The notes under the pieces are model-generated. The model was given only the letters and a program-made list of their open reading frames with translations, was not told where the DNA came from and made no database searches. From positions 2,941 to 66,940 of the forward strand of contig JAHINB010000006.1 in the NCBI GenBank assembly GCA_018896215.1: 64,000 bases of DNA. Direction: 5' to 3'. Source of the DNA: Patescibacteria group bacterium. GTDB lineage: Bacteria > Patescibacteriota > WWE3 > 0-14-0-20-40-13. The position numbers and the translations under genes were made by a program. Shown here one piece after another: positions 795 through 59,748 of this stretch. Each line of letters begins with the position of its first letter. Position 1 is the first letter of the stretch.

Positions 795-1421
795 CTAACA
801 AGCGCCCTCTGCCCTAAGGACGGCTAACGGTGTCTTAAGAATGATAATAATATCAAATTTAATCGATTTAATACCTGCATATTCTGCCTCCATTCTAATT
901 CGTTTGTCAAATGGAATTTTGCTTCGCCCGCTTACCTGCCAATATCCCGTAATTCCCGGTTTTACCGACAATACTTTATCTAAATAAGGAGTCTCCTGGG
1001 GATTTTCCGCCTCATATTTTTTAAGTTCGTCGGGTCTTAAGGCTCTGGGACCCACAAAACTCATTAATCCGCTTAAAACATTAAAGAGCTGGGGGAGCTC
1101 GTCAATAGAATACTTTCTAATAAACTTTCCAATTTTTGTTACTCTAAAATCATCTTTAACTTTATTTGTTCCGCTTCTCATTTTTTCGTAAAGCTCTCTA
1201 TTAGAATATAGTATAGCGTCGGCATTTTTTACCATTGACCTAAACTTATAGAATGTAAATTCCTGCCTTTTTAGTCCAACTCTTTTGTGGGAATACAAAG
1301 GAGACCCACCGTCTTGAAGAAAAATGGCAATAGCCACAACAATAAAAACAGGAGATAAAATAACAAGAGCTACAAGAGAAATTGCTAAATCCATTGCTCG
1401 CTTAGTTTGCTCGTAAAACAT
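795..1421 (-). CDS. Monotopic phosphoglycosyl transferase (bacterial sugar transferase family, PglC / WbaP C-terminal domain type); the initiating enzyme on polyprenol phosphate.
   Basis: Hallmark motifs KRAMDLAISLVALVILSPVF (single TM), RVGLKRQEFTFYKFRSM, DELPQLFNVLSGLMSFVGPRALRPDE. The ORF-track N-terminal extension (1422-1520) overlaps the 78-bp repeat and the upstream gene; the likely true start is ATG at 1421 (MFYEQTKRAMD). Confidence 0.8.
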   Translation of the reverse strand: MFYEQTKRAMDLAISLVALVILSPVFIVVAIAIFLQDGGSPLYSHKRVGLKRQEFTFYKFRSMVKNADAILYSNRELYEKMRSGTNKVKDDFRVTKIGKFIRKYSIDELPQLFNVLSGLMSFVGPRALRPDELKKYEAENPQETPYLDKVLSVKPGITGYWQVSGRSKIPFDKRIRMEAEYAGIKSIKFDIIIILKTPLAVLRAEGAC

Positions 1422-1430
1422 CGGTTGAGT

Positions 1431-1510
1431 ATATACCCATCTTATGCTAGTTTGCAACCCGTAGGGTTGGAAAAATAGCTTAGATGGGTATATACCCGTA
1501 GGGTGTACCA
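1431..1510 (-). repeat. About 78-bp intergenic repeat, copy 1 (copy 2 at 40045-40123). On the minus strand it contains a sigma70-like TTGCAA-N18-TATACT placed 6 nt before the ATG at 1421.
   Basis: tatacccatcttatgctagtttgcaacccgtagggttgg...cttagatgggtatatacccgtagggtg is about 85% identical to 40045-40123. Internal direct repeat acccgtagggt. Confidence 0.6.
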
Positions 1511-2625
1511 CCCATGACACTTAGATAGCCATCCAATGTTTTTTGAGCCATATCTCGCCAATTGTATTGCAAAAGCAACCTTTGTGATTTTACAACAAGA
1601 CTTTCCCGCAACTTCTCGTCCAAAGTAATTCTTTTAATCGCCTCTTCTATTTCTATGATACTTTTGGGATTAAAGTACAAAACAGAATCCTGGTAAACCT
1701 CTCGGTGACACTCTATATCAGATAAAGCGCAAGGAATTTTTGACGCAATTGCCTCCAACGGTGTTAGATTAAAACCTTCTTCTAGTGACGCTGTGATATA
1801 GGAATTAGCATTTTGATATATTTGAGAGAGCGTATCGTCATTTATATACGAGTACCCCTCTATGAAAGAGGGAAAAATTACTCTATCTTGCAACGATAGA
1901 CTATACGCCAACTCCTTGATTCTGGCAAGATAAATATCCCGTTGCCCTACAATTACCAAACTTCCAGTGAATTCTCCCCAATCTACAATTTTCTTAAAAG
2001 CTATTATTAAATCACGAAGATTTTTATGCTCGTAAGCATTTCCAACATACAAAATATAGGGCTTGGTAATTCCAATTCTATCTAAAGCAACAAGGTCTGG
2101 TTCGGAAGATTGATAAAAAATTGGATCTACTCCTTCATAAGTTATAACAGCCTTTTTGTCTAGATTAAGATACCACAAAACTTTCTTTATTCGATCAAAT
2201 GAGGCGCGAGTTGGAATAAATATTTTACGCGCCTTAATTGCTGATATTACTACCACCAATTTGTAAACAAGCTGTTTAACATTGGCATCACCAGAAGAAT
2301 GCATTATTAAATCGTGAATTGTAATAACATGTTTTTTAAAATATAAAATGGGAACATTAAAATGCGGTACATGAAGTAAATCTAACTTTTCTTGATAGAG
2401 CACAATTGGAAAGAAAATCTGCTCTACAAGTGAATAGCAAGCAAAATCCGCCAACACTTTTTTAAAGTTCGGATTTTGTGGGGTGTACAATTCGTAATTT
2501 TGTGATCTTAAAAAAATCGCGTACTCGTTTTTAGTATCTAATTTTTCCAGCTCACTGATTAAATTCTTTATGTACCTACCAAGTCCAGACGATCCATAAA
2601 GCCTAGCATCAATTCCAATTTTCAT
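1480..2625 (-). CDS. Glycosyltransferase family 1 (GT4-type, retaining).
   Basis: Classic N-terminus MKIGIDARLYGSSGLGRYIKNL. C-terminal domain GNAYEHKNLRDLIIAF...EGFNLTPLEAIASKIP. Strong SD (AGGAGGA) 9 nt upstream of ATG 2625. Confidence 0.8.
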   Translation of the reverse strand: MKIGIDARLYGSSGLGRYIKNLISELEKLDTKNEYAIFLRSQNYELYTPQNPNFKKVLADFACYSLVEQIFFPIVLYQEKLDLLHVPHFNVPILYFKKHVITIHDLIMHSSGDANVKQLVYKLVVVISAIKARKIFIPTRASFDRIKKVLWYLNLDKKAVITYEGVDPIFYQSSEPDLVALDRIGITKPYILYVGNAYEHKNLRDLIIAFKKIVDWGEFTGSLVIVGQRDIYLARIKELAYSLSLQDRVIFPSFIEGYSYINDDTLSQIYQNANSYITASLEEGFNLTPLEAIASKIPCALSDIECHREVYQDSVLYFNPKSIIEIEEAIKRITLDEKLRESLVVKSQRLLLQYNWRDMAQKTLDGYLSVMGGTPYGYIPI

Positions 2626-2640
2626 CCTTAATTTCCTCCT

Positions 2641-3564
2641 TTAAACTTTCATTTTAACTTTTGAAAGCAATTTTTTAAGATCTATTCCAACAAAAACCAA
2701 ACCTCGTATAATTTTTGGGTATTTGTTTTTGTAATGCTTGTCGTAAAACATCTTCATTGTATCAAAAAAGGCGTTGAACGCTACCTCTTTTTCTTTTTGC
2801 GTTACTGGAACTTGAGTTTTTAAATTGCCTTTAATTCCCGAGGACATTCCCTTGTAATGATAAGCCTTAACAAAAGGGCAAAAGTATGTTTTCCACCCTA
2901 CCTCTTTTACGCGATAGCACAAGTCTAGATCCTCCGCATACATAAAATAATCTTCGTCTAGTAGTCCTACCTCTTTAAGAGCTGTCGATCTTACTAACAT
3001 AAACGATCCCGAAACGGCATCTACTTCATGAGTTTTATTGAAGTTTTTATACGATTGATGATACTGACTGAACATGGGTAGTCTAGGAAACAGTTTTTCC
3101 AAACCCAGATAATATGTTAAAGATGCCCATGGTGTTGGAAAACCACGATGAGATGCTGGGTCTATTTTGGAACTTGCCACAAGCTCAACAAAACAAGTCG
3201 CGATACCGGCTTTTGGAGTGCTATCCATAAAAGTAATCATTTCCTCTAAAGTATTTTTGGCAACAAAGGCGTCGGGGTTTAAAAGAAGAATGTAGCGACT
3301 GGAACATTTTTTTATTCCCAAATTATTACCTTTGGAAAATCCCAAATTCTCGTGGCTTTGGATTAATTTAACGAGAGAGTAATTATTTAAAACTATTTTT
3401 GAGGTACCGTCCCGGGAAGCGTTATCTACAACTACAATCTCTCCTTGATATTTCCCTTTACGGGAATCGAAGGAAATCTCGTGAGAATTGATGAGACTAT
3501 CAACACACCCTTGGATAAAGTTTTGGGAATCAAAAGTTAAAATTACAACCGATAGATCAAGCAT
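2641..3564 (-). CDS. Glycosyltransferase family 2 (soluble).
   Basis: LSVVILTFDSQNFIQGCVDSL...VVVDNASRDGT... and a DxD-type segment FMYAEDLDLCYR. Confidence 0.75.
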   Translation of the reverse strand: MLDLSVVILTFDSQNFIQGCVDSLINSHEISFDSRKGKYQGEIVVVDNASRDGTSKIVLNNYSLVKLIQSHENLGFSKGNNLGIKKCSSRYILLLNPDAFVAKNTLEEMITFMDSTPKAGIATCFVELVASSKIDPASHRGFPTPWASLTYYLGLEKLFPRLPMFSQYHQSYKNFNKTHEVDAVSGSFMLVRSTALKEVGLLDEDYFMYAEDLDLCYRVKEVGWKTYFCPFVKAYHYKGMSSGIKGNLKTQVPVTQKEKEVAFNAFFDTMKMFYDKHYKNKYPKIIRGLVFVGIDLKKLLSKVKMKV

Positions 3565-3567
3565 AAG

Positions 3568-6552
3568 TTATTCGTTAAACCATTTAGAACCAAACATTTC
3601 TTTCTCAAAATAAAAAGGGTCGTATTCCGCTGGCGTTATTTGATACGGTTGTTGCGTAAATATAGGAGGAACGGTAAGCCAGTCTTTTCCAAACAAAACG
3701 AAATCTCCTTCCTTTCTATATACCATAATTCGTGAACTGGGGTATTTGACAAGCAGCTTCTTGTAACTAGATTCGGAAGATATCGCCATAAACGCTTTGC
3801 CTTTTGGGCTTTTTATCATATCGGAAAGTTCGTTTCCCGAAACAGGTCGAGAAAATCGCAGGATGTAAAAATACGCGGGACCAGGAGACATGTTATAAAA
3901 ATACACCGCTGACTTTCGCGGTAAAAATGCCGAATCGTCATTTAACTCCGAAACTGTCGCTCCAAGGGTCGCAATATCGCGATTTACATCATCAAGAAAC
4001 CACATAGACTTCCAACGAATTAGCAAAAAAACAGATGCTATAGTTATTACAAATACTAAAGCAATGAAACTAATATTTTTCCACAATCTCGTAAAAGAGA
4101 CGCTAGTGATTCTATCTAAAGCCCAACAGATAAACCATCCAACCAAAATAGCCAACGGTGGGTAAATTGGAACCAAGTACCATTGAATTTTAGATTTAGA
4201 AATAGAGAGAATTAAAAAAGTCACAAACCCCCATAAAATTAAGAAAACAAGTGGGCGTTTTTGCTCCTTTGAGAATCTATTTGAGACCACAGTGTAAATT
4301 GAGAACACAAGCGAGGGGATTAATACCACCGCCCAATGCCTAAACCAAACTTTTAAAACCACAAGATACCACCAAAAATCTTGGGTGTGTCCTTCAATCC
4401 CTTGAGATCGTTCCAAGATATGATAAAGAAAGTAAGAGTCGATAAACTCCCTCCCAAATCGAATGATCTCAATAGCGTGCCAAGGAACAGCTATTATTAA
4501 AAACCAAAGAATGATTGTTAAGAAATGTTTTAGTCTGTACAGTTTGTTTTTTAGGAAAATAAAATCAACGAGAACAAATAGAGATAATACGGCAATAGGA
4601 ATAGCAACAACCGCACCTTTTGTCATAGCAACTAATCCTAAAAATATTCCCACCCACTTCCAACTTGTTTGCGTCTTTTGAGATTTCCAAAAAGAATACA
4701 TTGCGAGAAGTATCCAAACCGCAGTTAAAATATCTAAAGTTCCGTTTCGGGACTGAAAAATCCAATGTGTTGTGGTTGCCAAAACTACAGCTGAAATAAT
4801 TCCAATTTTTTCGGAAAACATTTTTTTGCCAAAAAGATAGACCGCTAATACTCCAGCAACGCCTGCTATTGCCGAAACAAATCGCGCCGAAAATTCATTA
4901 ATCCCAAAAATAAAATAAGTAAAAGCAGTCAGCCACATATATAAAGGTGGCTTCTCGAACCAATAACCATTACCATCGCGAAGCGCGTTTTCCCGCCAAA
5001 CGAGCGCAAAAGCATCCCCCTTTAAATGCAAAATGTTCTCAGAGATTAATGCGTAAATAGATTCATCCCAGTCAGAAAGCGCTGGACGACCCAGTTTATA
5101 AAAAATAAACGATCCTGCAAGCACTACCAAAAAAGTCACAATTCCAATATCTTTTGTGGATAATTTAATTTTCTGCAAATTGTGCCAAGAAAGAAACACC
5201 GCAATAAAAACAAAAAAGTAAAAGAACTCGAGATTATAAGAATAAAAGACCCCCGAAGTAAAAATAGAAACAAGACCAGCAAAAACACCCAAGATAATAA
5301 TTGAATTTCTCTCTTTATTTTGAAGCGATTTTCTTAACCTATAAGCTAATGCCAAAAAAAGAGTCCCAATTAAGAAATAAAACGGGACTGTCCCTACTAG
5401 TCCTGTCGCCGAAAGCGGTTCAAACCAAACACTGTGCGCTGGAATTTTGGCATCTTTTACGGGATCTAACTCAAAATAATCTTTAGCAATAGGAGTTTCC
5501 CTAAAGCGCTTGTCAAACGACCCATACCCCCCGCCAATTACTGGATTGTCTTCCAGAATTTGCCATGAGCCTAAAATTAACGCGGAGTGGGCATTAATAG
5601 AACTGTCCCAAACACGATAAGAAAAATTAAGTGACGAAAATCTTTCTACTAACCTTTTTGGGATTTTTACAAAACCCAGATTAACTAGACAAAAACCAGA
5701 ACTAACGATTATCAAGATGGTAACAATTCCTAAAAATAAAGCCTTTAAACGATGACCAAACGCCAATCCTAAAATGTAAGCTGATAACCCAACACCAAAG
5801 CCTATAAATGCGCTTCTTGATAAGGTTGCGACAAACGAGACTACAACCAAAATAGTCGCCGGAACTAGCAAAGGCAGATATTTTTTTGCAGTCGTCACAA
5901 GATACGAAAAGCTCAAAAAAACTATTGTGGCGGCAAAAGCGCCGTAGTGATTAACATCCCAAAACAGGGAGCCTATCCTTACTGGAGAATTTGGAAGCGG
6001 CCAAACTCCAGGAAGAATACGACCTTGGAACTTATAAAAGTAGTATTGAATTGGAGTAAATCCAGCTAAAACAACACCGGTTACAAAATAGATAAAAAGG
6101 CAATTATAAAGAAACTTTTCCCCGGATAAGAAAAACGCCTTCCTTAAGACTATGTAGAGTAATACTATTTCAGTAAAGAAAATGTTGATGTTTAAGCTTG
6201 CGGGAATATCCAAAGACCAAGCGGTTGAAACAAGGCGAATTAACCACACAATTAATAACAAAAAGAGAAACTTGTCTTCCGTGATTCTTGTCTCTAACCT
6301 AAGCGACTTAAGTGACCTAAGCGACTTAATAACTACAAGGTTTTTAAGAGTAAAAGAAAGGAGATACCACGCAATAATCCCGAGCAACGCCCATCTTGCT
6401 GGAGTTGCTCGCTCCAATCCCCAATTAAAGTAGATTCTATTATCCAGCGGTAAAAGGGGAATAAGATAATAAATAGATTTTACAAAATCCTTTTTAGCAA
6501 GAAAAAAATACAAGATTGTCAGAACAATCCCAGCAAAAAGAAGCGGTTCCAT
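3568..6552 (-). CDS. Large polytopic fusion protein: N-terminal O-antigen ligase/polymerase-like (Wzy_C) domain plus C-terminal ArnT/PMT_2-like GT-C glycosyltransferase domain.
   Basis: N-part: ATLSRSAFIGFGVGLSAYILGLAFG (Wzy_C-like SR motif), many TMs. C-part: EKPPLYMWLTAFTYFIFGINEFSARFVSAIAGVAGVLAVYLFGKKMF...TTTHWIFQSRNGTLDILTAVWILLAMY (PMT_2-like). Confidence 0.55.
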   Translation of the reverse strand: MEPLLFAGIVLTILYFFLAKKDFVKSIYYLIPLLPLDNRIYFNWGLERATPARWALLGIIAWYLLSFTLKNLVVIKSLRSLKSLRLETRITEDKFLFLLLIVWLIRLVSTAWSLDIPASLNINIFFTEIVLLYIVLRKAFFLSGEKFLYNCLFIYFVTGVVLAGFTPIQYYFYKFQGRILPGVWPLPNSPVRIGSLFWDVNHYGAFAATIVFLSFSYLVTTAKKYLPLLVPATILVVVSFVATLSRSAFIGFGVGLSAYILGLAFGHRLKALFLGIVTILIIVSSGFCLVNLGFVKIPKRLVERFSSLNFSYRVWDSSINAHSALILGSWQILEDNPVIGGGYGSFDKRFRETPIAKDYFELDPVKDAKIPAHSVWFEPLSATGLVGTVPFYFLIGTLFLALAYRLRKSLQNKERNSIIILGVFAGLVSIFTSGVFYSYNLEFFYFFVFIAVFLSWHNLQKIKLSTKDIGIVTFLVVLAGSFIFYKLGRPALSDWDESIYALISENILHLKGDAFALVWRENALRDGNGYWFEKPPLYMWLTAFTYFIFGINEFSARFVSAIAGVAGVLAVYLFGKKMFSEKIGIISAVVLATTTHWIFQSRNGTLDILTAVWILLAMYSFWKSQKTQTSWKWVGIFLGLVAMTKGAVVAIPIAVLSLFVLVDFIFLKNKLYRLKHFLTIILWFLIIAVPWHAIEIIRFGREFIDSYFLYHILERSQGIEGHTQDFWWYLVVLKVWFRHWAVVLIPSLVFSIYTVVSNRFSKEQKRPLVFLILWGFVTFLILSISKSKIQWYLVPIYPPLAILVGWFICWALDRITSVSFTRLWKNISFIALVFVITIASVFLLIRWKSMWFLDDVNRDIATLGATVSELNDDSAFLPRKSAVYFYNMSPGPAYFYILRFSRPVSGNELSDMIKSPKGKAFMAISSESSYKKLLVKYPSSRIMVYRKEGDFVLFGKDWLTVPPIFTQQPYQITPAEYDPFYFEKEMFGSKWFNE

Positions 6553-6554: not shown

Positions 6555-7691
6555 CTATTCAGTAGAAGACCCTAAAACCCTCTGATAAACTTCCAAGGTT
6601 TGTTTGGCACAATTCTCCCATGTATAAGTCTTTTTAACAAATTCTGGAAAACTTTTAGCTACCGTCGGTCTTTGCGCTTCTATCAATGCCTTATAGATTG
6701 AATTGACTGATGCAGGATCGCAATACACAGCATTGTCGCCAAGGTACTCCCCTGCTCTATCCCCTGACGCAACAAGAGAAGATACACCACACACCGTTGC
6801 CTCCAAAAAGACCAGACCCGTGGTCTCAAACCAAGAAGGAGAAGCAAAAATTGAGGCGGTTTGGTATAAATTGCACAATTTTTCTTGCTCAACAAACCCC
6901 AAATATTCAAAAAGTTCTTGGTCATGGATGGTTCTATAAAATTCTTTAAGATAAGTTGGGTGGTGTAAGTTACCCTTTCCAATAAAAATCATCTTGTAAC
7001 CAGAAAGCTCCCCCGAATTTACCGCTCTAATAAAAGCCATAGCCAAGTTAATTTGGTTTTTTCTAGGTTCAATTCTCCCGACCGATAGAATTACTTTTTC
7101 TTTTTTAACATTTAGAGTATCTCCAAACTTTTCTGGGTTAATTCCGTTGACAACTTTTTTCCATTTAAAATCTCCGGTCTTATAATCTAATTTCAAATCT
7201 TTTGCCTCTAGATCTGTCTGCACCAACACATAATCGCTCATGGCAACATCTCGGCGCTGCTCGTTTCTAATCCCAAAAAACAACTGGTAAAAAGCGGGAT
7301 AGAGTTTTTTAGGATATAAAATCCCCTTGATTAAATTTTTTATCGTATCACGAGCAGGCTGGTTGGTTAAAACGGCATTTCCCAAAACAGACAATCCCCA
7401 GCGATTAAGTTGTTCGTATTTTAAAAATTCCGCAAGGCTATGATGAATTGGAGAAAGCACCACTTTTTTCCCCTGTCTTTTAGCATTTTTTATTTGAAGA
7501 TACGGTTCGCAAACCCAATCTAGATTAAAAACATGAACAAGGTCATATTGAGAAAGATCCAAAGAAAGCTCGCAGTTAATATCAACAGAAACACCAAGCG
7601 CTTCAAGCGCCTTTTTAGTCTCCAACATCTGCACCGTATCCCCACCGTATTTGTCAAACAAATCCAATCGTGATTGAAAAAGTACTTTCAT
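6555..7691 (-). CDS. Glycosyltransferase family 1 (GT4).
   Basis: ASIFASPSWFETTGLVFLEATVCGVSSLVASGD (GT4 EX7E region). The ORF-track start is GTG at 7709, inside the hairpin; ATG at 7691 (MKVLFQSRLD) is more likely. Confidence 0.75.
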   Translation of the reverse strand: MKVLFQSRLDLFDKYGGDTVQMLETKKALEALGVSVDINCELSLDLSQYDLVHVFNLDWVCEPYLQIKNAKRQGKKVVLSPIHHSLAEFLKYEQLNRWGLSVLGNAVLTNQPARDTIKNLIKGILYPKKLYPAFYQLFFGIRNEQRRDVAMSDYVLVQTDLEAKDLKLDYKTGDFKWKKVVNGINPEKFGDTLNVKKEKVILSVGRIEPRKNQINLAMAFIRAVNSGELSGYKMIFIGKGNLHHPTYLKEFYRTIHDQELFEYLGFVEQEKLCNLYQTASIFASPSWFETTGLVFLEATVCGVSSLVASGDRAGEYLGDNAVYCDPASVNSIYKALIEAQRPTVAKSFPEFVKKTYTWENCAKQTLEVYQRVLGSSTE

Positions 7692-7699
7692 GCTATTTA

Positions 7700-7728
7700 A
7701 GGGTGACACCCTATTAGGGTGTCACCCT
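7700..7728. repeat. Perfect palindromic hairpin: 13-bp stem agggtgacaccct, 3-nt loop. It fills the spacer between two minus-strand genes.
   Basis: agggtgacaccct att agggtgtcaccct. Overlaps the stop codon (7722-7724) of gene 7722-9986 and ends 8 nt before the ATG at 7691. Same sequence family as the hairpin at 16153-16182. Confidence 0.7.
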
Positions 7729-16144: not shown

Positions 16145-16152
16145 ATGCAAAT

Positions 16153-38703: not shown

Positions 38704-38729
38704 TAAAAAGCAAAATGTCCCCAAAATCT
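38704..38729. repeat. 26-bp direct repeat, copy 1 (taaaaagcaaaatgtccccaaaatct); right boundary of the putative 1.4-kb insertion.
   Basis: Exact 26/26 match to 40142-40167. Overlaps the stop codon of the ATPase gene. Confidence 0.8.
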
Positions 38730-45779: not shown

Positions 45780-46131
45780 TTTTTTTTAGTTTCTTAAAAA
45801 ATGCAACTACCAGATAAAAATATGCCCAAATAGAAATTTTCTCGGCGACAGTTTCAAGACTAAGAAACTTAAGCGGCAGCACCAAAGACAGTAATACTAT
45901 TGAAAGCATCAGGTACCAATCATGTTTTCGTGTATACACCAATTCGCACAGTAACCACAAAACCATTAAGGGAAAAAATACAAACGAATAAACAAACTCT
46001 AGCAATACCATATCCATCAAAACACCCAGCATGAACAGGAAAAGCAACATAACCTTGTTTTTTACCAGGAATTTCTTAAGGAGCTTCAGCAATCTTGCAA
46101 CTTTTAATTTTAATTTAAGAATTATCTTCAT
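45754..46131 (-). CDS. Small 4-TM membrane protein (125 aa), possibly a GtrA-like flippase subunit.
   Basis: Basic N-terminus KLKLKVARLLKLLKK followed by four hydrophobic helices. Its start and stop overlap the two giant genes, suggesting translational coupling. Confidence 0.35.
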   Translation of the reverse strand: MKIILKLKLKVARLLKLLKKFLVKNKVMLLFLFMLGVLMDMVLLEFVYSFVFFPLMVLWLLCELVYTRKHDWYLMLSIVLLSLVLPLKFLSLETVAEKISIWAYFYLVVAFFKKLKKSGSKIIVD

Positions 46132-52125: not shown

Positions 52126-53146
52126 CTAATTCTAAAAAAGCAAGTATTTTGTGGGGTAAAAAGTACATATTTTTCATAACTTCTATATCACCAACGGTAC
52201 GAATCTGCTGAATCTGCTTTCTCTTACTAAATGTGCTTTTTATATTTTTAATATTCCATACATACGCCCTAAAGTATGAATTGTAGGCAGAAGAAGCCTG
52301 TCCAGTTAGAACCAAAGCCACAGCCTCAACTATATTAATACAAAAATAGTATAGCAAAATCCACCAAACATTCCAAACAGAATAATTTTTTAGGATATTT
52401 CGAATAATATTCCTTTCGGCCAAAAATCTTCTCTTAGAGTTGGTAACATATTTTTCTTTGGGATTTGGATACCCACCAATACCAACGCTACCACCACTAA
52501 AATGGTAGATAACAGAATCAAAAACTGGAATCACAGACATCCCCATTAAGTGAGCTTTCCATGAGAGATCTACATCTTCGGCAAACAAAAAAGTGACTTC
52601 GTCCATCATTCCAATTTTAATGTAGTTCTCTCGTTTCATAAAAACACTAGTCCCATCAGCATAAAAGATTTTTTTTAACCTTTTTTTACCATCCCTGCTA
52701 TAAGTTCTTGCAGGATATCCAAAAATGTCAGCTGCGATCCCGCAGCTAATAAATTCTTTGCCATCGTAGGTCATTTGTCTTGCGGTATATATTTGTTCGT
52801 CATCTTTTTCCGCAGCTTTAACGAGCAGTTCCACACATTTCGGATCAGTCCAAGTATCGGGACCTAAAAGAAATATATATTTTCCGGTCGCATTTAAAAC
52901 TCCAAGATTGTTTCCAGCCGCACAACCCGCATTTGTGGGAGACACCACTACCTGACCTCTTTTAATTCTTTTTTGGGCGTCAACAACTGTATTATCTGGA
53001 GATAAACTATCCACAAAAATTACCTCAATATTTGGGTAGGATTGATTATTAACAGAATCAAAATATTTTTGATTAAATCTTTCGTTTTTATAGGCTGTGG
53101 TGACAATAGAAACCAGTGGCTCTTTAAATTTTCTATCTTTTGGCAT
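52103..53146 (-). CDS. Glycosyltransferase family 2 (rhamnosyl/glucosyl-transferase-like) with a single C-terminal TM.
   Basis: PLVSIVTTAYKNERF, IEVIFVDSLSPDNT, and a DXD-like FAEDVDLSWK. Confidence 0.7.
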   Translation of the reverse strand: MPKDRKFKEPLVSIVTTAYKNERFNQKYFDSVNNQSYPNIEVIFVDSLSPDNTVVDAQKRIKRGQVVVSPTNAGCAAGNNLGVLNATGKYIFLLGPDTWTDPKCVELLVKAAEKDDEQIYTARQMTYDGKEFISCGIAADIFGYPARTYSRDGKKRLKKIFYADGTSVFMKRENYIKIGMMDEVTFLFAEDVDLSWKAHLMGMSVIPVFDSVIYHFSGGSVGIGGYPNPKEKYVTNSKRRFLAERNIIRNILKNYSVWNVWWILLYYFCINIVEAVALVLTGQASSAYNSYFRAYVWNIKNIKSTFSKRKQIQQIRTVGDIEVMKNMYFLPHKILAFLELGVPKVTK

Positions 53147-54044
53147 TTCTAAATTTTAACATTTTGTTTAAGTACGACTCTAAAGCTATTTCCCAATTTC
53201 TCATAACTTTAAGACCCAATTTATGAATTTTCTGATTAATAGCGACCTCAAAAGGCGGTCGTGGTGCATAATAATTCTTGGCAAAAAAATCGGAGGTGAC
53301 CTCCGTCAGCTTAACATGACTAAAATCAAAAAATTCAATTATCTTTTCTGCTACATCGTAACGAGAACAATTTCCTTCGCTAACCATATGATAAAGTCCC
53401 GAATCGGCTACGCGCAACATTTTTACAATACCCTTAGAAAAATCCTCGGTGTATGTAGGACAACCAAACATATCAGTAAGAGCGTATAACTCGGTCTTCC
53501 CTTGATCAACTTGATCCAAAATCTTTTTAACAAACTTTTTATCTCTGTCAAAACCACCCATCATCCAACCCGCTCTAAAAATGTGATAATTCCCTTTTAA
53601 TATTCTCTGTACCGAAAGATCACCTTGGTGCTTGGCCTTTCCATAAACATTTACTGGGTTGGGTTTATCTTCTTCGGTATAAGGGATTTTTTTTGTCCCA
53701 TCAAAAACTCCAGCGGTACTGATATGAACCATTGGGATACCGTATTTTTTGCAGACTAAAGCTACATTTTCGGCTCCTTGGGCATTAGTTTCGTAAGCTT
53801 CGTTGGAATGGGATTCACAATATTCAACATCTGTAAGTGCTGCAAAATTAAAAATATAATCGGGTTTTATTTTTTTAGCCAGCAAAGATATGGAATTTTT
53901 ATCTCTTACATCCAACCTTTGCGTCCAAGGGTCTAGGGGTTTAAGATCCGTGGAAACAATATCAAACAAATTTTTAAAGGTACTATAAAAGGTTGTGCCT
54001 AACATACCAGAAGCACCAGTTATTAGGATACGATTTTTTTTCAT
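53133..54044 (-). CDS. RmlD-like SDR (dTDP-4-dehydrorhamnose reductase family).
   Basis: ILITGASGMLG, LDVRD, PDYIFNFAALTDVEYCE, VHISTAGVFDG...NVYGKAKHQGD, IFRAGWMMG; length 303 aa. This order and spacing of motifs is typical of RmlD. Confidence 0.65.
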   Translation of the reverse strand: MKKNRILITGASGMLGTTFYSTFKNLFDIVSTDLKPLDPWTQRLDVRDKNSISLLAKKIKPDYIFNFAALTDVEYCESHSNEAYETNAQGAENVALVCKKYGIPMVHISTAGVFDGTKKIPYTEEDKPNPVNVYGKAKHQGDLSVQRILKGNYHIFRAGWMMGGFDRDKKFVKKILDQVDQGKTELYALTDMFGCPTYTEDFSKGIVKMLRVADSGLYHMVSEGNCSRYDVAEKIIEFFDFSHVKLTEVTSDFFAKNYYAPRPPFEVAINQKIHKLGLKVMRNWEIALESYLNKMLKFRNAKR

Positions 54045-54075
54045 AAAACAAGAAATACCACTAAAGCTACGGGGG

Positions 54076-54939
54076 CTAGTCTAACATAATATTTCGAAAC
54101 AGAAAATCCCCAACTGTTATAGGTCCATAACCTTTATCGGTAAAATTTCTAAAATAAACCAACTGAAAATTAAATTTATCGCTATACAACAAAGAGTTGA
54201 TTTGGCTAAAGGTGTAATTATTGTTATCTTCTAAACTTATCTCTATATGTAAATACTTTGTTTTGATAAGAGTCTTTTGAGCCCCTCTTAAAACATGAGC
54301 CTCGTAACCTTCGGTGTCAATTTTTAAAAGGTCAATGACCCTAATTTTTTCTTGAAGACACCAGTTATCCAAAGTTGTGGATCGCACTTTAACAGTTTTA
54401 CCACTATCCTTTGCATCCCTATCAATAACATGACTAACGGCGGACTCTTGATCCTTAAAACTCATAGAAACCATTCCATCCTTATCTGAAATAGCAACAC
54501 CATATACTTTGTCAAGGTTAGAAGTGAGGTTTGCTTTAAGATTTGTAAAAATCTGCGGGACAGGCTCTATAGCATAAATTTGCGCTTTTGGATAAAGTTC
54601 TCGTAGCATCATAGAAAAAAACCCTACATTAGCACCAATATCAACAATTGTATTTGCCGTCTTTGAACCCGCATCGCGCAACATTCTTTGTTGCCTCACT
54701 AACATACTTTGATACCCTGCAATTCCATAAGGGGAATCGTAAAAAATCCTTTTTCCAAAAAGATTGGTGTAATTCTCCCCAAAGACAAATTTTTTTATTC
54801 CTGATGAAAGCAAAAATAACTCCCAGTATTTTTTAAAAAGAAATTCTATTTTCTTAGAAAATTCCCAATGACAAACTGCAAACATCCCCAAATCAAGTTC
54901 AATTGAGGATTTAACAAACCAAAACATTCCTTTTATCAT
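54076..54939 (-). CDS. FkbM-family SAM-dependent methyltransferase.
   Basis: DIGANVGFFSMMLRELYPKAQIYAIEPVPQIFTNLKANL and KIDTEGYEAHVL (FkbM domain signatures). Confidence 0.7.
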   Translation of the reverse strand: MIKGMFWFVKSSIELDLGMFAVCHWEFSKKIEFLFKKYWELFLLSSGIKKFVFGENYTNLFGKRIFYDSPYGIAGYQSMLVRQQRMLRDAGSKTANTIVDIGANVGFFSMMLRELYPKAQIYAIEPVPQIFTNLKANLTSNLDKVYGVAISDKDGMVSMSFKDQESAVSHVIDRDAKDSGKTVKVRSTTLDNWCLQEKIRVIDLLKIDTEGYEAHVLRGAQKTLIKTKYLHIEISLEDNNNYTFSQINSLLYSDKFNFQLVYFRNFTDKGYGPITVGDFLFRNIMLD

Positions 54940-55033: not shown

Positions 55034-57349
55034 ATGACAAGCAACAAAAAGGCATTGGTTGGGATTCTGTTCTTTATTCTTTTAATCTTTGTCCGAAATA
55101 TCGCTCTTTGGTCCCAAGAGCAAACATTCATCTTTGCTGATACTGCCATCTACGCTTTACAGCTTTCCGCATTTTCCCAAAATATCACAAGTATCTTTTC
55201 GCAACACTCGAGCTTTTTAGGATGGAACCCTAATTATCTCTCTACTGGTATTCCAACCTTGTCTGTAGTCGACTTTGGTTACCTGTATCCACCAGACTTT
55301 GTCATAGCTTTAATTTCTAAAATTTTCGGAAATAGTTTACTGGTTTTTCCTTTTACCACCTTGCTTGCTTATTTACATCTGGCATTTGGAGCATTTTTTG
55401 TTTACAAAATATTAAAAGATTATTTTAAACTCGAAAATTATTCTAGTCTTTTTGGGGGACTTCTTTGGGTTATTACGGGTTACAATCTGGAATATTTAGC
55501 TGCAACCTCTGTTCTTTACGCTGGAAGTTATCTTCCTGTCTGTTTTTATCTAAATCTTAAAAGGAAAGAGAAAGATGAATTTAGATACTTTTTTTTGTTC
55601 TACCTACTTTTAGCCTTTAGCTTTTTAGCCGGATACCCCATGCCTTCAGTTCTTATAGTCTTGACAGTAACCACATACAATATATTAACAGGTGACAAGA
55701 TTAAGTACACACTCATTTCCGTAATCAAGGATAACCTAAGAGGGCTGTTTTTAATAACTTTTCCATTGATCTCGCCACTCTACTTTTCGGCTATTGCCAA
55801 TTTCCCCCAAAGTGTTCGAGGTACTGTTTTAACTTTGGAGGGTTTTATAAGCAACCCCATAAAAATATTTAATCTCGCGGAAGGGATTTTGCCAGTTAAT
55901 ACGCTTTTTAATACAGCAAGCTCCACAAACATTGTTCACCTCTCTTTGAGCACCGTTGTTTTAATAATTCTTTTACAAGCAAAAAACAAAGGGGAAGTTT
56001 TTAGAGATAAAAGACTTTTGTCCTTACTGGCACTTGCTATTTTTGGAGCAATTTTGTCCGCGGGAGGAACAACTTATTTTCCGACTTTAATTTATCTAAC
56101 AACTCCAATCATTAGTTTTTTTAGAAGGCTTGCTGTATTTTCTTTAATCCCAGGATTTGCGGTTTGTTTAATTGCCCCCTTTTATATTAAAAACGCCCTT
56201 GGTCAGAGAGGAATATCCCAGCCTTTGGGATTTGGGATTAAAATCTTTGCCATCCTGGCTCTTGTAACACAAGCCTATAAAATTGCCTTTATAGGAAAAG
56301 TGGAGATTCTAAATTATCCGGCGCTGGTTCAAAACCTAAGCATTATTTTTGTGATTGGAATGCTCTCTGTACTCTCTTTTATTGTTTATCATAAGAATAA
56401 AAGAATTGGTTTTGCCATTCTTGGTTTTGCCTTAATAGTTGAATCTGGAACTCTTGTTGCCAGTAAAGTTTACCTAAATTCTAAAACAAACCCCGAGGCG
56501 GTTTTCCAACCGAACGAGCTTACAAATTATTTAAAAGAGAATACTAAACCAGGAGAGCGCGTTGATATGTTATTTACACAGCATAGCTATAGTACAGACT
56601 ACCTAGGATTGGAACAAACGGCGGGATACATGTCATTAGCAAGCGAGTATGGTGTTAGAATAAATGAGCTTTTGCCTTTGCCCCAAAGCCAGTACGACTC
56701 CAAAAGCTTAAGGGACATTTTAGGAGTTAAATATATTGTAAGAAAAGGAGATTGGGAAGACACCAATCTAAAAAAAGTTGCCGAAATTAAGCAAAACCCT
56801 CTAAAACCTAACTTTTACTCATTTGATTATAATTCGCTTTCTTGGTGGCCAGATCCTGTGGACACTTATTATAGTGTTTATCAGAACCCCACGGCACTTC
56901 CAAGATTGTACTTAGCATCAAATATTATTCCAACAGCAAGACAATCAAAATATCTTTTGCCCTATTTCGAAAAGCTAGAAGATCCAAAAACCGTTTTTCT
57001 TGAAGCAGATAAATTACAACCAGGAAAAATTTCACCCGAGGGGGAAGTTGTCATAAAGGATTATCAAAGAAACTACATCAAAGCCGAGGTGACAGCAGAG
57101 AAACAAACATTCCTCGCCAATTCCACAGGTTTTTATCCTGGCTGGAAGGCAAGGATTAACGGAACAAAGGTTGCCCCAATTCGCACTAATTGGTTCATGA
57201 TGGGAGTATACCTGCCGGCGGGAGAAAACACAGTTGAGTTTATTTATACCCCTTACGAGGCAAACATTGGTCTGTTGTACATAATATTAGCAACAACATA
57301 TTGGTTTTTTTCCAGAATTCTTAGACATAAATATGAACAAACTTTATGA
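55034..57349 (+). CDS. Large polytopic membrane protein (771 aa); possibly YfhO-like GT-C.
   Basis: About 14 TMs in the N-terminal 480 aa, then a soluble C-terminal domain. Sits in the methyltransferase/GT sub-cluster. Confidence 0.35.
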   Translation: MTSNKKALVGILFFILLIFVRNIALWSQEQTFIFADTAIYALQLSAFSQNITSIFSQHSSFLGWNPNYLSTGIPTLSVVDFGYLYPPDFVIALISKIFGNSLLVFPFTTLLAYLHLAFGAFFVYKILKDYFKLENYSSLFGGLLWVITGYNLEYLAATSVLYAGSYLPVCFYLNLKRKEKDEFRYFFLFYLLLAFSFLAGYPMPSVLIVLTVTTYNILTGDKIKYTLISVIKDNLRGLFLITFPLISPLYFSAIANFPQSVRGTVLTLEGFISNPIKIFNLAEGILPVNTLFNTASSTNIVHLSLSTVVLIILLQAKNKGEVFRDKRLLSLLALAIFGAILSAGGTTYFPTLIYLTTPIISFFRRLAVFSLIPGFAVCLIAPFYIKNALGQRGISQPLGFGIKIFAILALVTQAYKIAFIGKVEILNYPALVQNLSIIFVIGMLSVLSFIVYHKNKRIGFAILGFALIVESGTLVASKVYLNSKTNPEAVFQPNELTNYLKENTKPGERVDMLFTQHSYSTDYLGLEQTAGYMSLASEYGVRINELLPLPQSQYDSKSLRDILGVKYIVRKGDWEDTNLKKVAEIKQNPLKPNFYSFDYNSLSWWPDPVDTYYSVYQNPTALPRLYLASNIIPTARQSKYLLPYFEKLEDPKTVFLEADKLQPGKISPEGEVVIKDYQRNYIKAEVTAEKQTFLANSTGFYPGWKARINGTKVAPIRTNWFMMGVYLPAGENTVEFIYTPYEANIGLLYIILATTYWFFSRILRHKYEQTL

Positions 57350-58070
57350 ATCAAAATACCATAGATTAGAAACTAATTACTGGTTGTTTATAGCACGAAG
57401 AGATGCGGTTATAAATTTAATTAAAAAGGTTGATATAGGTAAAACTGATAAAATTTTAGATATTGGTTGCTCCGGTGGTCCTCTCATAAATTTACTAAAA
57501 GAAAATGGGTTTATGAATATTTATGGAATCGACATTAGTGTGGACGCAATCAATTTATGTAAAAAAAGAGGCATAAATAATGTAACGGTTATGGATGGCA
57601 CAAAAACACTATATAAAGATGGGGAATTTGACACAATAATAGCTTCTGATATTTTAGAACATTTAAAGGACGAGGATTCTGCTTTATCTGAATGGTATAG
57701 ATTACTAAAACCTAATGGTAAATTAATACTATCTGTTCCTGCATTGAATTCTTTGTGGAGCGGTCATGATGAAATTAACGGACATTATAGAAGATATAAT
57801 AAATCATCGCTAATAAAGAGATTAGAAAAAGCACAATTTAAATTGCACAAAATCTCTTATTGGAACTTTACCCTCTTTTTTCCTATTTATGTACTAAGTA
57901 TGTTTCAACACCTTTTACCCAAAAATAAAAGCGCCTTAAAAGATCGCTTGTATGAGTTATGTCCCCTAATCAATGGAACATTAGTTGCTTTATTAAAAAC
58001 AGAGAATTTTTTCTTAAAATATATTAATTATCCGGTTGGAATTAGTATTTTTACGGTATGGAGAAAATAA
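57333..58070 (+). CDS. Class I SAM-dependent methyltransferase.
   Basis: ILDIGCSGGPLINLLKENGF (motif I); LLKPNGKLILSVP. Confidence 0.7.
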   Translation: MNKLYESKYHRLETNYWLFIARRDAVINLIKKVDIGKTDKILDIGCSGGPLINLLKENGFMNIYGIDISVDAINLCKKRGINNVTVMDGTKTLYKDGEFDTIIASDILEHLKDEDSALSEWYRLLKPNGKLILSVPALNSLWSGHDEINGHYRRYNKSSLIKRLEKAQFKLHKISYWNFTLFFPIYVLSMFQHLLPKNKSALKDRLYELCPLINGTLVALLKTENFFLKYINYPVGISIFTVWRK

Positions 58071-58091
58071 AACCAGAAGATCCGTCGCCGT

Positions 58092-58586
58092 ATGATTGAT
58101 ACTTCGATGTTTTTAGAAAAATATCTGCAAAATTACCGCTTTAAAATGGCGGCGCCTTATCTAATTGGAGATGTTTTGGATTTTGGCGGCAACAACGGAG
58201 AGTTAAAAAGGCTGGTTAAAGGCAAATATCTTGTTGTTAACTACGATCATTCCGTAATGAAAAATGCCCATTGTGACACCATTGTAAGTTTAGCGGTTAT
58301 TGAGCATATATCAGTTAAAGAAGTATTTAAGATTTTTAAAAAATTTAAAGATATTTTAAATATGAATGGTAGAATTTTTATAACAACCCCAACAAAAATG
58401 GCAAAGCCTGTTCTGGAATTTATGACTTTCTTTGGAATTTTTGATAAAGAAAATATGGGTGAGCATAAACACTATTGGAATGAAAAAGATATCCGCTATC
58501 TGGCAAAAAAAGCAGGCTTTGCGGTAAAAAAATATAAAAAATTCCAATTTGGATTTAATCAATTGGCTGTTTTTGAGCACAAGTAG
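58092..58586 (+). CDS. Small class I SAM-dependent methyltransferase-like protein.
   Basis: VLDFGGNNGEL, IVSLAVIEHI, NGRIFITTP. Confidence 0.5.
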   Translation: MIDTSMFLEKYLQNYRFKMAAPYLIGDVLDFGGNNGELKRLVKGKYLVVNYDHSVMKNAHCDTIVSLAVIEHISVKEVFKIFKKFKDILNMNGRIFITTPTKMAKPVLEFMTFFGIFDKENMGEHKHYWNEKDIRYLAKKAGFAVKKYKKFQFGFNQLAVFEHK

Positions 58587-58587
58587 T

Positions 58588-59748
58588 ATGGAAGAAAAAG
58601 AAATTAAAAATACCATATTTATAGTTACCACCCACATTTTATTTCGCGATATCTATAAACCCAACGAACCTGTGGAGGGTCCGTATACCTCTGTAATTAA
58701 TGCCCTTAGAGATAAAGCAAAACTTGTTGAAGTTCTAGGATTTCCTTTAATTGGCTACAAACACCCCATTATTTACGGTAAAGAATCCAGCACAAAAATC
58801 CTTAAGCTACCAAATTTCTTGGGTGTTATCCCTCCAATCAAATATCTGGTAGACATTGTTTTGACTATCGTACTTTTAACACAAACGCTTATCAAAAATC
58901 GCAAGGAAAGTATTATAGTAGTTGGAATTGATCCGCTTTCTTCAATCCCCGCTTTGATACTAAAGCCCATCTTTAGATTTAAGTTTATCTTCTATTGCGT
59001 TGATTTTAATGAGAATCGTTTTAAGAACGGTTTAATGCAAGGCATTTATCAGTATTTTGATCGGCTCTCCAGTATTAAAGCCGATCAAGTCTGGGTTGTT
59101 TGTGATTCGTTAAAGGAATACAAAAAGAAACACTTTGGGGCAGATTCGATTTACATTCCCAATTCCCCACTCCACGATCCAGCACTTAGCAAAGAAGGGA
59201 AAAATAAAAGAACTGGTAATAAATTGGCGTGGACTGGAACTCTTTTAACCGAAAGGCAATTTGGAATCTTTTTTGATGTGGTGGAAAATATCTTAAAAGT
59301 TAGACCCGATTTGGAGGTCTATTTGGTTCCCATAAAAGACCACGAAAAGTTTGAAACAATTATTAAAGAAAGAAAATTAAATAATGTCAAGGTGATTCGA
59401 CTTACAAGTCGCCGAGCCTGGCAAGAATTTGTGGCCACTTGCGATGTGGGACTGGCAGTTTATGACGATAAATTTGGGTCAACAAAATATATTGAGCCAC
59501 TTAAGATCTGGGATTTTATGCTTTGCGGAGTTCCTTTTATAATTTCCTGTGAGCCTTCTATTGCCAAACCTGTAGTGGATTCTAAAGTCTGTTACCTACT
59601 AGGACCCGCCAATAGTTTTCCCAATGAGATGGGATTAAAGAAGTTTTTGGAAAAGGGAAATCTTGATACTTTATTTGAAAAATGTCTTACCTTGTCTCGT
59701 GACTTCGCCATAGACAAGCGGATTATCTCATCTCTTAAATCCCTATAA
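58588..59748 (+). CDS. Putative glycosyltransferase (GT-B-like C-terminal domain).
   Basis: LAWTGTLLTERQFGIFFDVVENILKVRPDLEVYLVP...CGVPFIISCEP. The track ORF starts at 58549 inside the previous gene; MEEKEIK at 58588 is the likely start. Confidence 0.4.
   Translation: MEEKEIKNTIFIVTTHILFRDIYKPNEPVEGPYTSVINALRDKAKLVEVLGFPLIGYKHPIIYGKESSTKILKLPNFLGVIPPIKYLVDIVLTIVLLTQTLIKNRKESIIVVGIDPLSSIPALILKPIFRFKFIFYCVDFNENRFKNGLMQGIYQYFDRLSSIKADQVWVVCDSLKEYKKKHFGADSIYIPNSPLHDPALSKEGKNKRTGNKLAWTGTLLTERQFGIFFDVVENILKVRPDLEVYLVPIKDHEKFETIIKERKLNNVKVIRLTSRRAWQEFVATCDVGLAVYDDKFGSTKYIEPLKIWDFMLCGVPFIISCEPSIAKPVVDSKVCYLLGPANSFPNEMGLKKFLEKGNLDTLFEKCLTLSRDFAIDKRIISSLKSL

Follow-up and report, generated by a model that had tools for sequence, protein, structure and literature searches.

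The DNA described here is a stretch of 64,000 nucleotides (the window) from contig JAHINB010000006.1 of assembly GCA_018896215.1, a Patescibacteria group bacterium of the WWE3 lineage. It has a GC content of about 36% and contains 47 substantial open reading frames (ORFs), of which 42 (g01 to g42) fill the interval 795-59748, their summed lengths being about equal to the entire interval. These 42 ORFs are organised as four arrays of uniform direction, g01-g25 (minus strand, -), g26-g28 (plus strand, +), g29-g38 (-) and g39-g42 (+), within which stop and start codons frequently overlap. A first-pass annotation had described about 45 consecutive genes, almost all related to glycosylation; the number had to be lowered to 42, the four arrays with their overlapping stops and starts stood, and when each ORF was compared with Pfam and NCBIfam, 40 of the 42 received a glycan-pathway assignment. 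The two exceptions are g33, which encodes a protein of 125 amino acids (aa) with three transmembrane (TM) segments and no family, and g29 (38728-39981, -), which encodes an ATPase with AAA_14 and DUF4143 domains. It is g29 alone whose assignment is unrelated to glycan synthesis.

More than half of the interval (56%) is taken up by 17 genes for polytopic glycosyltransferases (GTs) of the GT-C type. All 17 large membrane proteins that had been proposed as GT-C-like, with lengths of 466-1223 aa, passed the GT-C test, and none of them turned out to be a transporter. Twelve scored above the Pfam gathering thresholds of GT-C families, namely PMT_2 or PMT in the case of g04, g07, g08, g13, g16, g21, g24, g27 and g28, GT-C_AftD for g32 and g34, and YfhO for g39. 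Two others, g17 and g26, are sub-threshold paralogs of Pfam-matched GT-Cs, and g14, g30 and g35 gave no Pfam match even at E-values up to 10. A Kyte-Doolittle scan, which is a crude predictor and not a topology model, revealed 7-19 hydrophobic segments in all 17 proteins. According to BLASTP, the paralog groups are g32/g34, g08/g21/g26/g28, g07/g13 and g16/g17; all other members are singletons. An acidic D-E pair following the first TM helix (TM1) is present as DE in seven of the 17 proteins and as DD or ED in two more, which brings the number with such a pair within about 30 aa after TM1 to nine; most of the others have a single Asp. PP(L/V) motifs were found in only 8/17 proteins and at varying positions, and are not a shared feature.

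The genes with PMT_2 or PMT similarity are spread over the first two arrays. g08 (11598-13109, -; PMT_2 49.3 bits) and g21 (27951-29450, -; PMT_2 42 bits) are close paralogs (BLASTP E 1e-73), and their group also includes g28 (37092-38699, +; PMT_2 55 bits) and g26 (34046-35563, +), a GT-C-like protein with a GWDE motif that matched PMT_2 and Glyco_transf_22 below threshold and g08 with a BLASTP E-value of 5e-27. The HPDE motif is common to g07 (10013-11644, -; PMT 43.6 and PMT_2 41.6 bits), where it follows TM1, and the PMT_2/GT87-like g13 (17736-19301, -; PMT_2 50 bits). In the third group, g16 (21386-22906, -) scored 34.5 bits for PMT_2, and the GT-C-like g17 (22893-24587, -), which has a DD motif, missed the cutoff of 26.1 with 23.5 bits; g17 matched g16 with a BLASTP E-value of 1e-5, and its ortholog in the sister species (see below) matches PMT_2. 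The remaining members are g24 (31603-33105, -; PMT/PMT_2, PMT 53.8 bits, HWDE motif) and g27 (35554-37095, +; NDE motif), the latter marginal with a PMT_2 score of 26.9 bits versus the cutoff of 26.1.

In g04 (3568-6552, -), a Wzy_C region of the O-antigen polymerase/ligase type (aa 1-455) is fused to a PMT_2-type GT-C (aa 456-994). The scores were 49 bits for Wzy_C, 65 bits for PMT_2 and 55 bits for PMT; the protein has 19 hydrophobic segments and a DWDE motif at residues 494-497. In a set of 1.84 billion representatives, fusions of Wzy_C to PMT_2 are found in about 30-40 full-length 50%-identity clusters, and many separate halves occur as well. The AftD-family proteins g32 (42735-45779, -; 1014 aa, GT-C_AftD 48 bits) and g34 (46128-49799, -; 1223 aa) share 47% identity over 658 aa. 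The TM map of g32 shows a large extracytoplasmic C-terminal region followed by a terminal TM helix. The GT-C_AftD score of g34 is marginal (27.1 bits), and its ortholog in the WWE3 genome GCA_001772885.1 (L011) matches the same family. The YfhO-like g39 (55034-57349, +; 771 aa) exceeded the YfhO cutoff (36 versus 28.5 bits) with its C-terminal part only. Comparison by hhalign related its TM region to the profile of the g30 family described below (probability 80%, E 1.4e-5) and found no relation to the profile of the PMT_2 paralogs of the window. Pfam gave nothing significant for the extracytoplasmic regions at the C-termini of g32, g34, g35 and g04 or for the N-terminus of the DUF4012 protein at the left border of the locus.

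For the three proteins that lack a Pfam match, profile searches of their families against the PDB sequences also found nothing, so that fold or profile-profile methods were required. The assignment of g14 (19298-20698, -) is based on a profile-profile comparison. It has 313 homologs, mostly from WWE3 and some of them carrying PF13231, and the alignment of 31 homologs matched the profile of the window's PMT_2 paralogs with an hhalign probability of 96.8% (E 2.8e-10), which suggests a family distantly related to PMT_2; no relation of the g14 family to the g35 family was detected with hhalign. Residues E39-D40 are conserved. The assignments of g30 and g35 are based on AlphaFold models and a PDB fold search. 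The model of g30 (40125-41825, -; pLDDT 87.7) matched STT3, AglB, ArnT, PglB, DPY19 and AftA in the PDB with a Foldseek probability of 1.0, and some homologs carry the precomputed label PF19830 (DUF6311), indicating a DUF6311-type family with GT-C fold. The protein g35 (49831-52125, -), likewise of GT-C fold, represents a family for which no Pfam model exists. It has a conserved H-x-D-E motif, and all its named homologs are from WWE3 or other Patescibacteria. The acidic motif of the first loop is kept in at least 90% of the members of the g35 and g14 families. In the DUF6311-type family of g30, the invariant residues are G12 and D16 and lie before the first predicted TM helix, whereas the catalytic acid of a typical GT-C follows TM1. 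This might mean either that the N-terminus is translocated without TM1 or that the fold is permuted at its start.

Six GTs of family GT2 are encoded in the interval (g03, g10, g15, g25, g31, g36). The first-pass annotation had assigned to four GT2s the C-terminal TM hairpin of polyprenyl-phosphate-sugar (polyprenyl-P-sugar) synthases. We found the hairpin in three of them (g10, g25, g31); four GT2s do resemble such synthases, but the set is a different one, with g15 included and g36 left out. The GtrB-type g31 (41800-42762, -; NCBIfam PgfS 200 bits) aligned with its residues 6-309 to residues 27-327 of the GtrB structure 5EKP (E 4.5e-61), hairpin included, and matched ArnC, too. Full-length matches to the ArnC model (163 bits; model positions 7-311 of 316) and the PgfS model were obtained for g10 (13992-14990, -), an ArnC/GtrB/PgfS-type protein whose hairpin is formed by residues 256-274 and 289-307. 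The AglJ/ArnC-type g25 (33102-33980, -) matched AglJ (97 bits) and ArnC over the full length, and its residues 8-288 could be aligned to residues 10-296 of ArnC in the PDB; g10, too, could be aligned over its full length to ArnC structures. The fourth protein, g15 (20699-21385, -), has only 228 aa and no TM helix. It is similar to dolichyl-phosphate mannose synthase (DPMS), ArnC, AglJ and PpgS: the NCBIfam score for AglJ was 122 bits, PpgS and the dolichyl-phosphate-hexose transferase model were also matched, and the best PDB matches were DPMS (5MLZ) and ArnC, covering residues 2-207. Because it lacks the hairpin, g15 is taken to resemble TM-less synthases such as PpgS. All NCBIfam scores stay far below the equivalog cutoffs (e.g., ArnC 163 versus 529, PgfS 200 versus 500), and the matches support g10, g15, g25 and g31 as candidate polyprenyl-P-sugar synthases by family type, without pointing to a specific enzyme.

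A synthase of GtrB type was also considered for g36 (52103-53146, -; Glycos_transf_2 82 bits) and rejected, since the protein gave no ArnC, GtrB, PgfS or AglJ match, has a single C-terminal hydrophobic helix, and its PDB matches cover the N-terminal GT-A core only. The gene adjoins g37, a bona fide rmlD gene, and its counterpart in GCA_001772885.1 is fused to an epimerase domain; a rhamnosyltransferase-like role is as likely as a synthase role. The sixth GT2, g03 (2641-3564, -; Glycos_transf_2/Glyco_tranf_2_3), is an ordinary soluble enzyme with no TM helix and no ArnC or GtrB match.

Each of the six GT2 genes lies next to a GT-C gene, with gaps of at most 8 nucleotides (nt) or overlaps, in the arrangements g36>g35, g31>g30, g25>g24, g15>g14, g10>g09>g08>g07 and g04>g03. 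Five of these are GT2>GT-C junctions, and the linkage is kept in the sister species. The pair formed by g10 and g08 is separated by g09, which encodes a protein resembling the flippase domain of MprF. The occurrence of four GT2s that are homologous to structurally characterized polyprenyl-phosphate GTs, each located immediately upstream of a GT-C gene (with g09 in between in the case of g10 and g08) and often sharing overlapping codons with it, favors the proposal that the donors are polyprenyl-P-sugars.

The locus also has the core set of a Wzx/Wzy pathway, i.e., an initiating phosphoglycosyltransferase (PGT), cytoplasmic GT4s, a flippase of the MOP superfamily and the Wzy_C domain of g04. 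A single monotopic PGT, a single flippase of the MurJ family and a single protein with LPG_synthase_TM had been predicted, and all three were confirmed. The PGT g01 (795-1520, -; Bac_transf 202 bits) is a small PglC-like protein with one hydrophobic helix and the NCBIfam EPS_sugtrans/WbaP C-terminal domain. The MOP flippase g12 (16176-17726, -) scored 164 bits for Pfam MurJ and 177 bits for TIGR01695, below the cutoff of 235, and may be either a glycan flippase or the housekeeping flippase for lipid II. A candidate for the flipping of polyprenyl-P-sugars is the MprF-flippase-like g09 (13084-13983, -; LPG_synthase_TM 120 bits), which exceeded the cutoff of the TIGR00374 flippase-like domain with 63.7 bits. 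The small protein g33 (45754-46131, -), for which neither Pfam nor NCBIfam gave a match, is a candidate flippase or accessory subunit. Its position is kept: the homolog in the sister species has 125 aa, too, and that in GCA_001772885.1 106 aa, with a weak tblastn match (E 0.029). The identification of g33 as GtrA was dismissed, as there was no match at E-values up to 10, and no ORF of the window matched the GtrA family (PF04138).

Instead of the nine GT4s counted previously, there are seven clear GT4 genes, one of them with a double module, and a weak one. The seven are g02 (1480-2625, -; Glycos_transf_1 78.6 bits), g05 (6555-7709, -; 63 bits), g06 (7722-9986, -), in which two Glycos_transf_1 stretches (150 bits) are fused, g11 (14987-16150, -; 101 bits), g18 (24490-25632, -; 80 bits), g19 (25637-26818, -; 141 bits) and g23 (30431-31597, -; 106 bits). 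The two halves of g06 exist as separate genes of about 375 codons in the WWE3 genomes CG08 (L005) and RIFOXYC1 (L012). The eighth, g42 (58549-59748, +), is GT-B/GT4-like (Glyco_trans_1_4 17.8 bits, E 0.004) and conserved in GCA_001772885.1.

Genes for sugar precursors and modifications are interspersed or follow. They include g20 (26815-27954, -) for a sugar aminotransferase of the PseC/LegC/DegT type (DegT_DnrJ_EryC1 355 bits, NCBIfam PseC 219 bits), g22 (29452-30489, -) for an NDP-sugar 4,6-dehydratase/epimerase (GDP_Man_Dehyd/Epimerase; 170 bits for the dTDP-glucose 4,6-dehydratase model), and g37 (53133-54044, -) for the dTDP-4-dehydrorhamnose reductase RmlD (TIGR01214 226.5 bits, cutoff 224). 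Methyltransferases are encoded by g38 (54076-54939, -; FkbM family, Methyltransf_21 79 bits, TIGR01444), g40 (57333-58070, +), a class I S-adenosylmethionine (SAM)-dependent enzyme (Methyltransf_23/11), and the SAM methyltransferase-like g41 (58092-58586, +; Methyltransf_23 44 bits). Outside the interval, g46 (61826-63151, -) encodes an RfbH-type 3-dehydrase (NCBIfam RfbH 566 bits, cutoff 423) and g47 (63144-64000, -) an NDP-sugar dehydratase/epimerase (Epimerase/GDP_Man_Dehyd) of 294 aa in full, whose start lies beyond the window. The presence of g46 points to a 3,6-dideoxyhexose pathway of the abequose, tyvelose or ascarylose type in a bacterium of the Candidate Phyla Radiation (CPR). Two overlaps within the first array extend over 98 nt between g17 and g18 (22893-24587 and 24490-25632) and 59 nt between g22 and g23 (29452-30489 and 30431-31597), which suggests that g17 and g22 actually begin downstream of the first in-frame starts listed.

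As shown by these flanking genes, the right border proposed at position 59748 does not hold, as the locus continues past this position and past the edge of the window. Right of g46 and g47, outside the window, follow a second DUF4012 gene, a GT2 gene and a gene for a short-chain dehydrogenase/reductase. The left border is formed by an open frame (3-794, -) for the N-terminal 264 aa of a DUF4012 protein of 645 aa, called PF13196 DUF4012 in four assemblies; leftward of the PGT gene g01, this gene is followed by those for RecO, glycyl-tRNA synthetase, RsmH, FtsL and a penicillin-binding protein. The two DUF4012 paralogs (645 and 593 aa) flank the whole locus, the right one being located at 2363-4144 of the corresponding contig of GCA_043827225.1 (L006). 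The locus is thus part of the chromosome, has a DUF4012 gene on either side and exceeds the interval initially delimited. DUF4012 is overrepresented in CPR and in Gram-positive bacteria and has been linked to loci for capsular polysaccharides and exopolysaccharides (PMC6744442).

Between position 59748 and g46, the plus-strand ORF g43 (59778-60377; 199 aa, with many His, Arg and Pro residues) is unlikely to be a real gene. Antisense to it lies an ORF of 181 aa (59814-60359, -) that gene callers reported in four assemblies; it adjoins the NUDIX gene g44 (60719-61192), by eye resembles g45 (61286-61807) in the manner of a paralog, and is a compositional outlier with a GC content at third codon positions of 0.63 versus a window mean of 0.34. 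The NUDIX gene is absent from the otherwise identical strain GCA_043827225.1.

Genes with sequences identical to g04 and g46 are present on contigs of several independent assemblies, among them the NCBI metagenome-assembled genomes GCA_022012835.1 (contig JAKLRK010000018.1, 67.5 kb), GCA_043812435.1 and GCA_043827225.1. The gene order is identical in at least six independent assemblies, which rules out an assembly artefact. A mobile island was also rejected, as there is no tRNA gene and no integrase gene and the GC content is even (33-41%) across the locus. GCA_022012835.1 (locus tags L6255_) is labelled 'Candidatus Parcubacteria bacterium'. This label is probably imprecise, because every named close homolog is from candidate division WWE3.

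A scan of genome contigs with g04 returned a single species representative. The nearest representative is candidate division WWE3 bacterium CG08_land_8_20_14_0_20_40_13, with 66% identity for g04. In the sister species GCA_002774285.1, the cluster is collinear, spread over several contigs, with about 50-72% amino acid identity (measured for g01-g11, g14 and g30). It keeps at least 14 GT-C genes with identical GT2>GT-C junctions, and the genes for the MurJ and LPG_synthase_TM proteins and for the g33 homolog are present as well. Differences concern g26-g29 (three GT-Cs and the ATPase), in place of which there are one PMT_2 gene and a gene for a 431-aa protein, as well as g06, which exists as two genes, one GT4 gene that is repositioned, and a NUDIX gene between two GT4 genes. 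In more distant WWE3 genomes, parts of the cluster reappear in other combinations. GCA_001772885.1 has the order FkbM > g35-like > epimerase-GT2 > AftD-like > small ORF > g30-like, and an 897-kb contig of GCA_001773215.1 (L012) the order DUF6311 > ... > g14-like > three GT4s > Wzy_C-PMT_2 fusion, the fusion gene adjoining a Polysacc_synt-type wzx gene. The g04 fusion is conserved in the WWE3 loci L005 and L012.

Taken together, these data make it probable, as judged from sequence and predicted structure, that we are dealing with the main envelope-glycan locus of the organism, in which a Wzx/Wzy-like route would operate alongside several modules known from Gram-positive bacteria (GT-A -> flippase -> GT-C). 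Family and fold membership, the adjacency of GT2 and GT-C genes and the conservation across WWE3 are shown by the data; what follows on the lipid carrier, the donor sugars, the roles of the flippases, the acceptor, the order of the steps and the number of products (one or several) is inferred. In the first route, precursors would be supplied by RmlD, the 4,6-dehydratase and aminotransferase, the RfbH-type branch leading to 3,6-dideoxyhexoses and the methyltransferases. g01 would prime polyprenyl phosphate, and seven or eight GT4s together with g03 and probably g36 would assemble a lipid-linked oligosaccharide at the cytoplasmic face, which g12 might flip and the Wzy_C domain of g04 might polymerise or ligate. 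In the second route, g10, g15, g25 and g31 would attach individual sugars to polyprenyl phosphate, and the products would be flipped by g09, perhaps also by g33 or g12. On the outside of the membrane, the 17 GT-Cs would add the sugars as branches or extensions to the polymer, to proteins or to lipids.

Among known systems, the nearest is the multi-component transmembrane glycosylation of Gram-positive bacteria, here multiplied and placed on top of a Wzx/Wzy-like pathway. GT-A/flippase/GT-C systems act on teichoic acids and rhamnose polysaccharides, some with a TM-less GT-A and a small membrane partner, and Wzx-type flippases also take part (PMC8035078); such modules have also been described for the addition of pentofuranoses (PMC11127046). 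CsbB/GtcA/YfhO, CsdAB/CD/EF of Lactococcus lactis, GacI/J/K/L of group A Streptococcus and GtrA/B/C of Shigella phages share with the WWE3 locus a GtrB/ArnC-type GT-A next to a PMT_2- or YfhO-type GT-C, a flippase-like gene inside one module and the proximity of the modules to a rhamnose (RmlD) and Wzx/Wzy-type polysaccharide pathway. The TM-less g15 and the small g33 with its three TM segments recall GacI/GacJ of group A Streptococcus. Characterized cases have one to three pairs per genome, whereas the WWE3 locus has four synthase candidates and 17 GT-Cs; it also differs by an MprF-flippase-like protein in place of a GtrA-family flippase, by three GT-C families with no Pfam model or a DUF label only, and by a GT-C fused to Wzy_C. 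With Wzx/Wzy loci for O-antigens, capsules and secondary cell-wall polysaccharides, it shares the PglC-like PGT, many GT4s and GT2s, a MOP flippase, Wzy_C, RmlD, DegT and RfbH and the co-directional operons. In contrast to these loci, its MOP protein belongs to the MurJ family and not to Polysacc_synt, which is found in L012, the window has no gene for Wzz or another polysaccharide co-polymerase (PCP) or for an LCP protein, Wzy_C is fused to a GT-C, and DUF4012 genes serve as brackets.

Several observations weigh against the two-route interpretation. No GtrA-family flippase was detected, and the role of g09 as a flippase is deduced from homology to the MprF flippase domain only; g12 might have no other task than to flip lipid II as a housekeeping protein. 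Among the window ORFs, there was no Wzz/PCP protein, no ligase of the LytR_cpsA_psr (LCP) family and no candidate acceptor protein. Finally, four putative synthases stand against 17 GT-Cs, which means that donors are shared or that some GT-Cs use polyprenyl-pyrophosphate-linked oligosaccharides, as do STT3, PglB and WaaL-like enzymes. In mycobacteria, polyprenyl-phospho-mannose (PPM) and decaprenyl-phospho-arabinose (DPA) are each donors for several GT-Cs.

Mycobacterial arabinogalactan and lipoarabinomannan (LAM), to which the cluster had been likened, depend on Emb, AftA-D, Mpt and PimE and on DPA and PPM as donors, and resemble it in having many GT-C paralogs that presumably share a few polyprenyl-P-monosaccharides and in two AftD-family members with large extracytoplasmic regions. 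The likeness is one of scale, i.e., of the GT-C number and of two AftD matches (48 bits for g32 and 27 bits for g34). The WWE3 window lacks DPA pathway genes and, according to Pfam, the Emb, AftA and AftB families; the genome, at an inferred size of only about 0.9 Mb, is another difference, and the mycobacterial genes are dispersed, whereas those of WWE3 are clustered. This comparison bears on the first of the alternatives, in which the backbone itself is assembled outside the cell as in mycobacterial arabinogalactan/LAM, with GT-Cs, especially g32 and g34, polymerising the main chains and the GT4 route providing only a primer or linker. We regard it as improbable. The match of g32 and g34 to PF11847 (GT-C_AftD), their large extracytoplasmic C-terminal regions, the share of the GT-C genes in the locus and a GT-C number similar to the complement of Mycobacterium tuberculosis would fit, but the AftD similarity is confined to the GT-C core and weak for g34, the window has neither a UbiA-type decaprenyl-phosphate phosphoribosyltransferase nor a DprE1/DprE2-like pair, and the PGT, GT4s, MOP flippase and Wzy_C favor a conventional repeat-unit route for the backbone. 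A function of the large membrane proteins as transporters or in anything else but glycosyl transfer, with the cluster being an illusion of annotation, is virtually excluded; the missing Pfam matches of g14, g30 and g35 were the reason to consider it, but the other 14 proteins match GT-C families, and profile-profile or fold searches identified these three as GT-Cs, with probabilities of at most 0.15 for transporter folds.

Two further explanations concern the acceptor and the unity of the locus. The GT-Cs could serve mainly protein O-glycosylation, acting like PMT or Pgf enzymes on Ser/Thr-rich surface proteins such as pilins, S-layer proteins or disordered regions, with the Wzy_C part of g04 as a PglL-type O-oligosaccharyltransferase. 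PMT (PF02366) was matched above threshold by g04, g07 and g24, and the Wzy_C family includes the O-oligosaccharyltransferases PglL and PilO. The best NCBIfam match of g31 is PgfS from the protein-glycosylation operon of Streptococcus mutans (PMC5856776, PMC12041528), where the genes of a GT2, an epimerase and membrane proteins of the GT-C type (PgfS, PgfM1, PgfE, PgfM2) are linked as here, and g31 and g10 aligned to the PgfS model over their full length, with scores below the equivalog cutoffs. Glycoproteins or a glycosylated S-layer were also listed among the options by Kantor et al. (PMC3812714). Nevertheless, this explanation appears rather unlikely. None of the 17 GT-Cs contains a MIR or PMT_4TMC domain (Pfam, E-values up to 0.01), the similarity being restricted to the N-terminal PMT/PMT_2 domain, and O-mannosylation of the PMT type, suggested by the first-pass annotation, is therefore not established. 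No candidate acceptor protein is encoded in or beside the locus, and 17 GT-Cs, 8 GT4s and a PGT far exceed the known bacterial O-glycosylation machinery; moreover, PMT_2 enzymes of Gram-positive bacteria act on polymers and lipids as well (PMC8035078). A mosaic of independent and partly alternative decoration modules, similar to the Gtr cassettes for serotype conversion and kept for surface variation under pressure from phages or host attachment, with several acceptors or conditional use, is possible but on balance doubtful. Such a mosaic would agree with the layout in GT2>GT-C pairs, with the replacement of g26-g29, the gain or loss of the NUDIX gene and the repositioned GT4 gene among close relatives, with the shuffling of modules in more distant WWE3 genomes and with the separate GT-A/GT-C pairs for different polymers in L. 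lactis and Bacillus subtilis (PMC8035078). On the other hand, the sister species has most genes, including at least 14 for GT-Cs, in intact form and collinear order, which indicates stable long-term co-inheritance rather than turnover of cassettes, and tRNA and Pfam scans detected no phase-variation repeats, recombinases or tRNA/integrase signatures.

WWE3 is an uncultivated lineage for which no envelope glycan has been characterized, as had been assumed at the outset. Its genomes are known to be especially rich in GTs, and polysaccharides, glycoproteins or a glycosylated S-layer were suggested as products (Kantor et al., 2013; PMC3812714). In the literature, we found no paper on an expansion of GT-Cs, a modular GT2>GT-C layout or a Wzy_C-GT-C fusion in CPR bacteria or WWE3. 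The locus stands out by its scale, by being clustered in a genome of about 0.9 Mb, a size estimated from WWE3 contigs of 852-897 kb, by the fusion and by the GT-C families absent from Pfam; all parts belong to known mechanistic classes, and no new principle is involved. Four polyprenyl-P-sugar synthases, 17 GT-Cs, the Wzy_C-GT-C fusion and the MprF-like flippase candidate are available as candidates for cloning, and the locus contributes GT-C families not covered by present domain libraries.

CPR bacteria (Patescibacteria) have minimal genomes, are thought to live attached to hosts, and their cell surfaces are almost uncharacterized. If the genome size is about 0.9 Mb, a single glycan locus would occupy about 7% of it, with more than half of the locus devoted to extracytoplasmic GT-Cs. 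Such a share implies a central role of the surface glycan in the life of the organism, be it for attachment, evasion of phages or integrity of an envelope without outer membrane, and makes the locus a good entry point to the surface biology of CPR bacteria. As a tentative conjecture that goes beyond the two-route interpretation, WWE3 bacteria might assemble their principal surface glycoconjugate at the outer face, or extensively remodel it there, by a line of 14-17 GT-Cs fed by a few polyprenyl-P-monosaccharides, as a convergent and clustered counterpart of the logic of mycobacterial arabinogalactan/LAM, including at least one family that lacks a model (g35-type) and a Wzy_C-GT-C fusion that physically couples polymerisation or ligation of repeat units to the addition of side chains. 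If this were true, a glycan built at the outer face could be the surface by which bacteria of this lineage attach as episymbionts and are recognised by phages.

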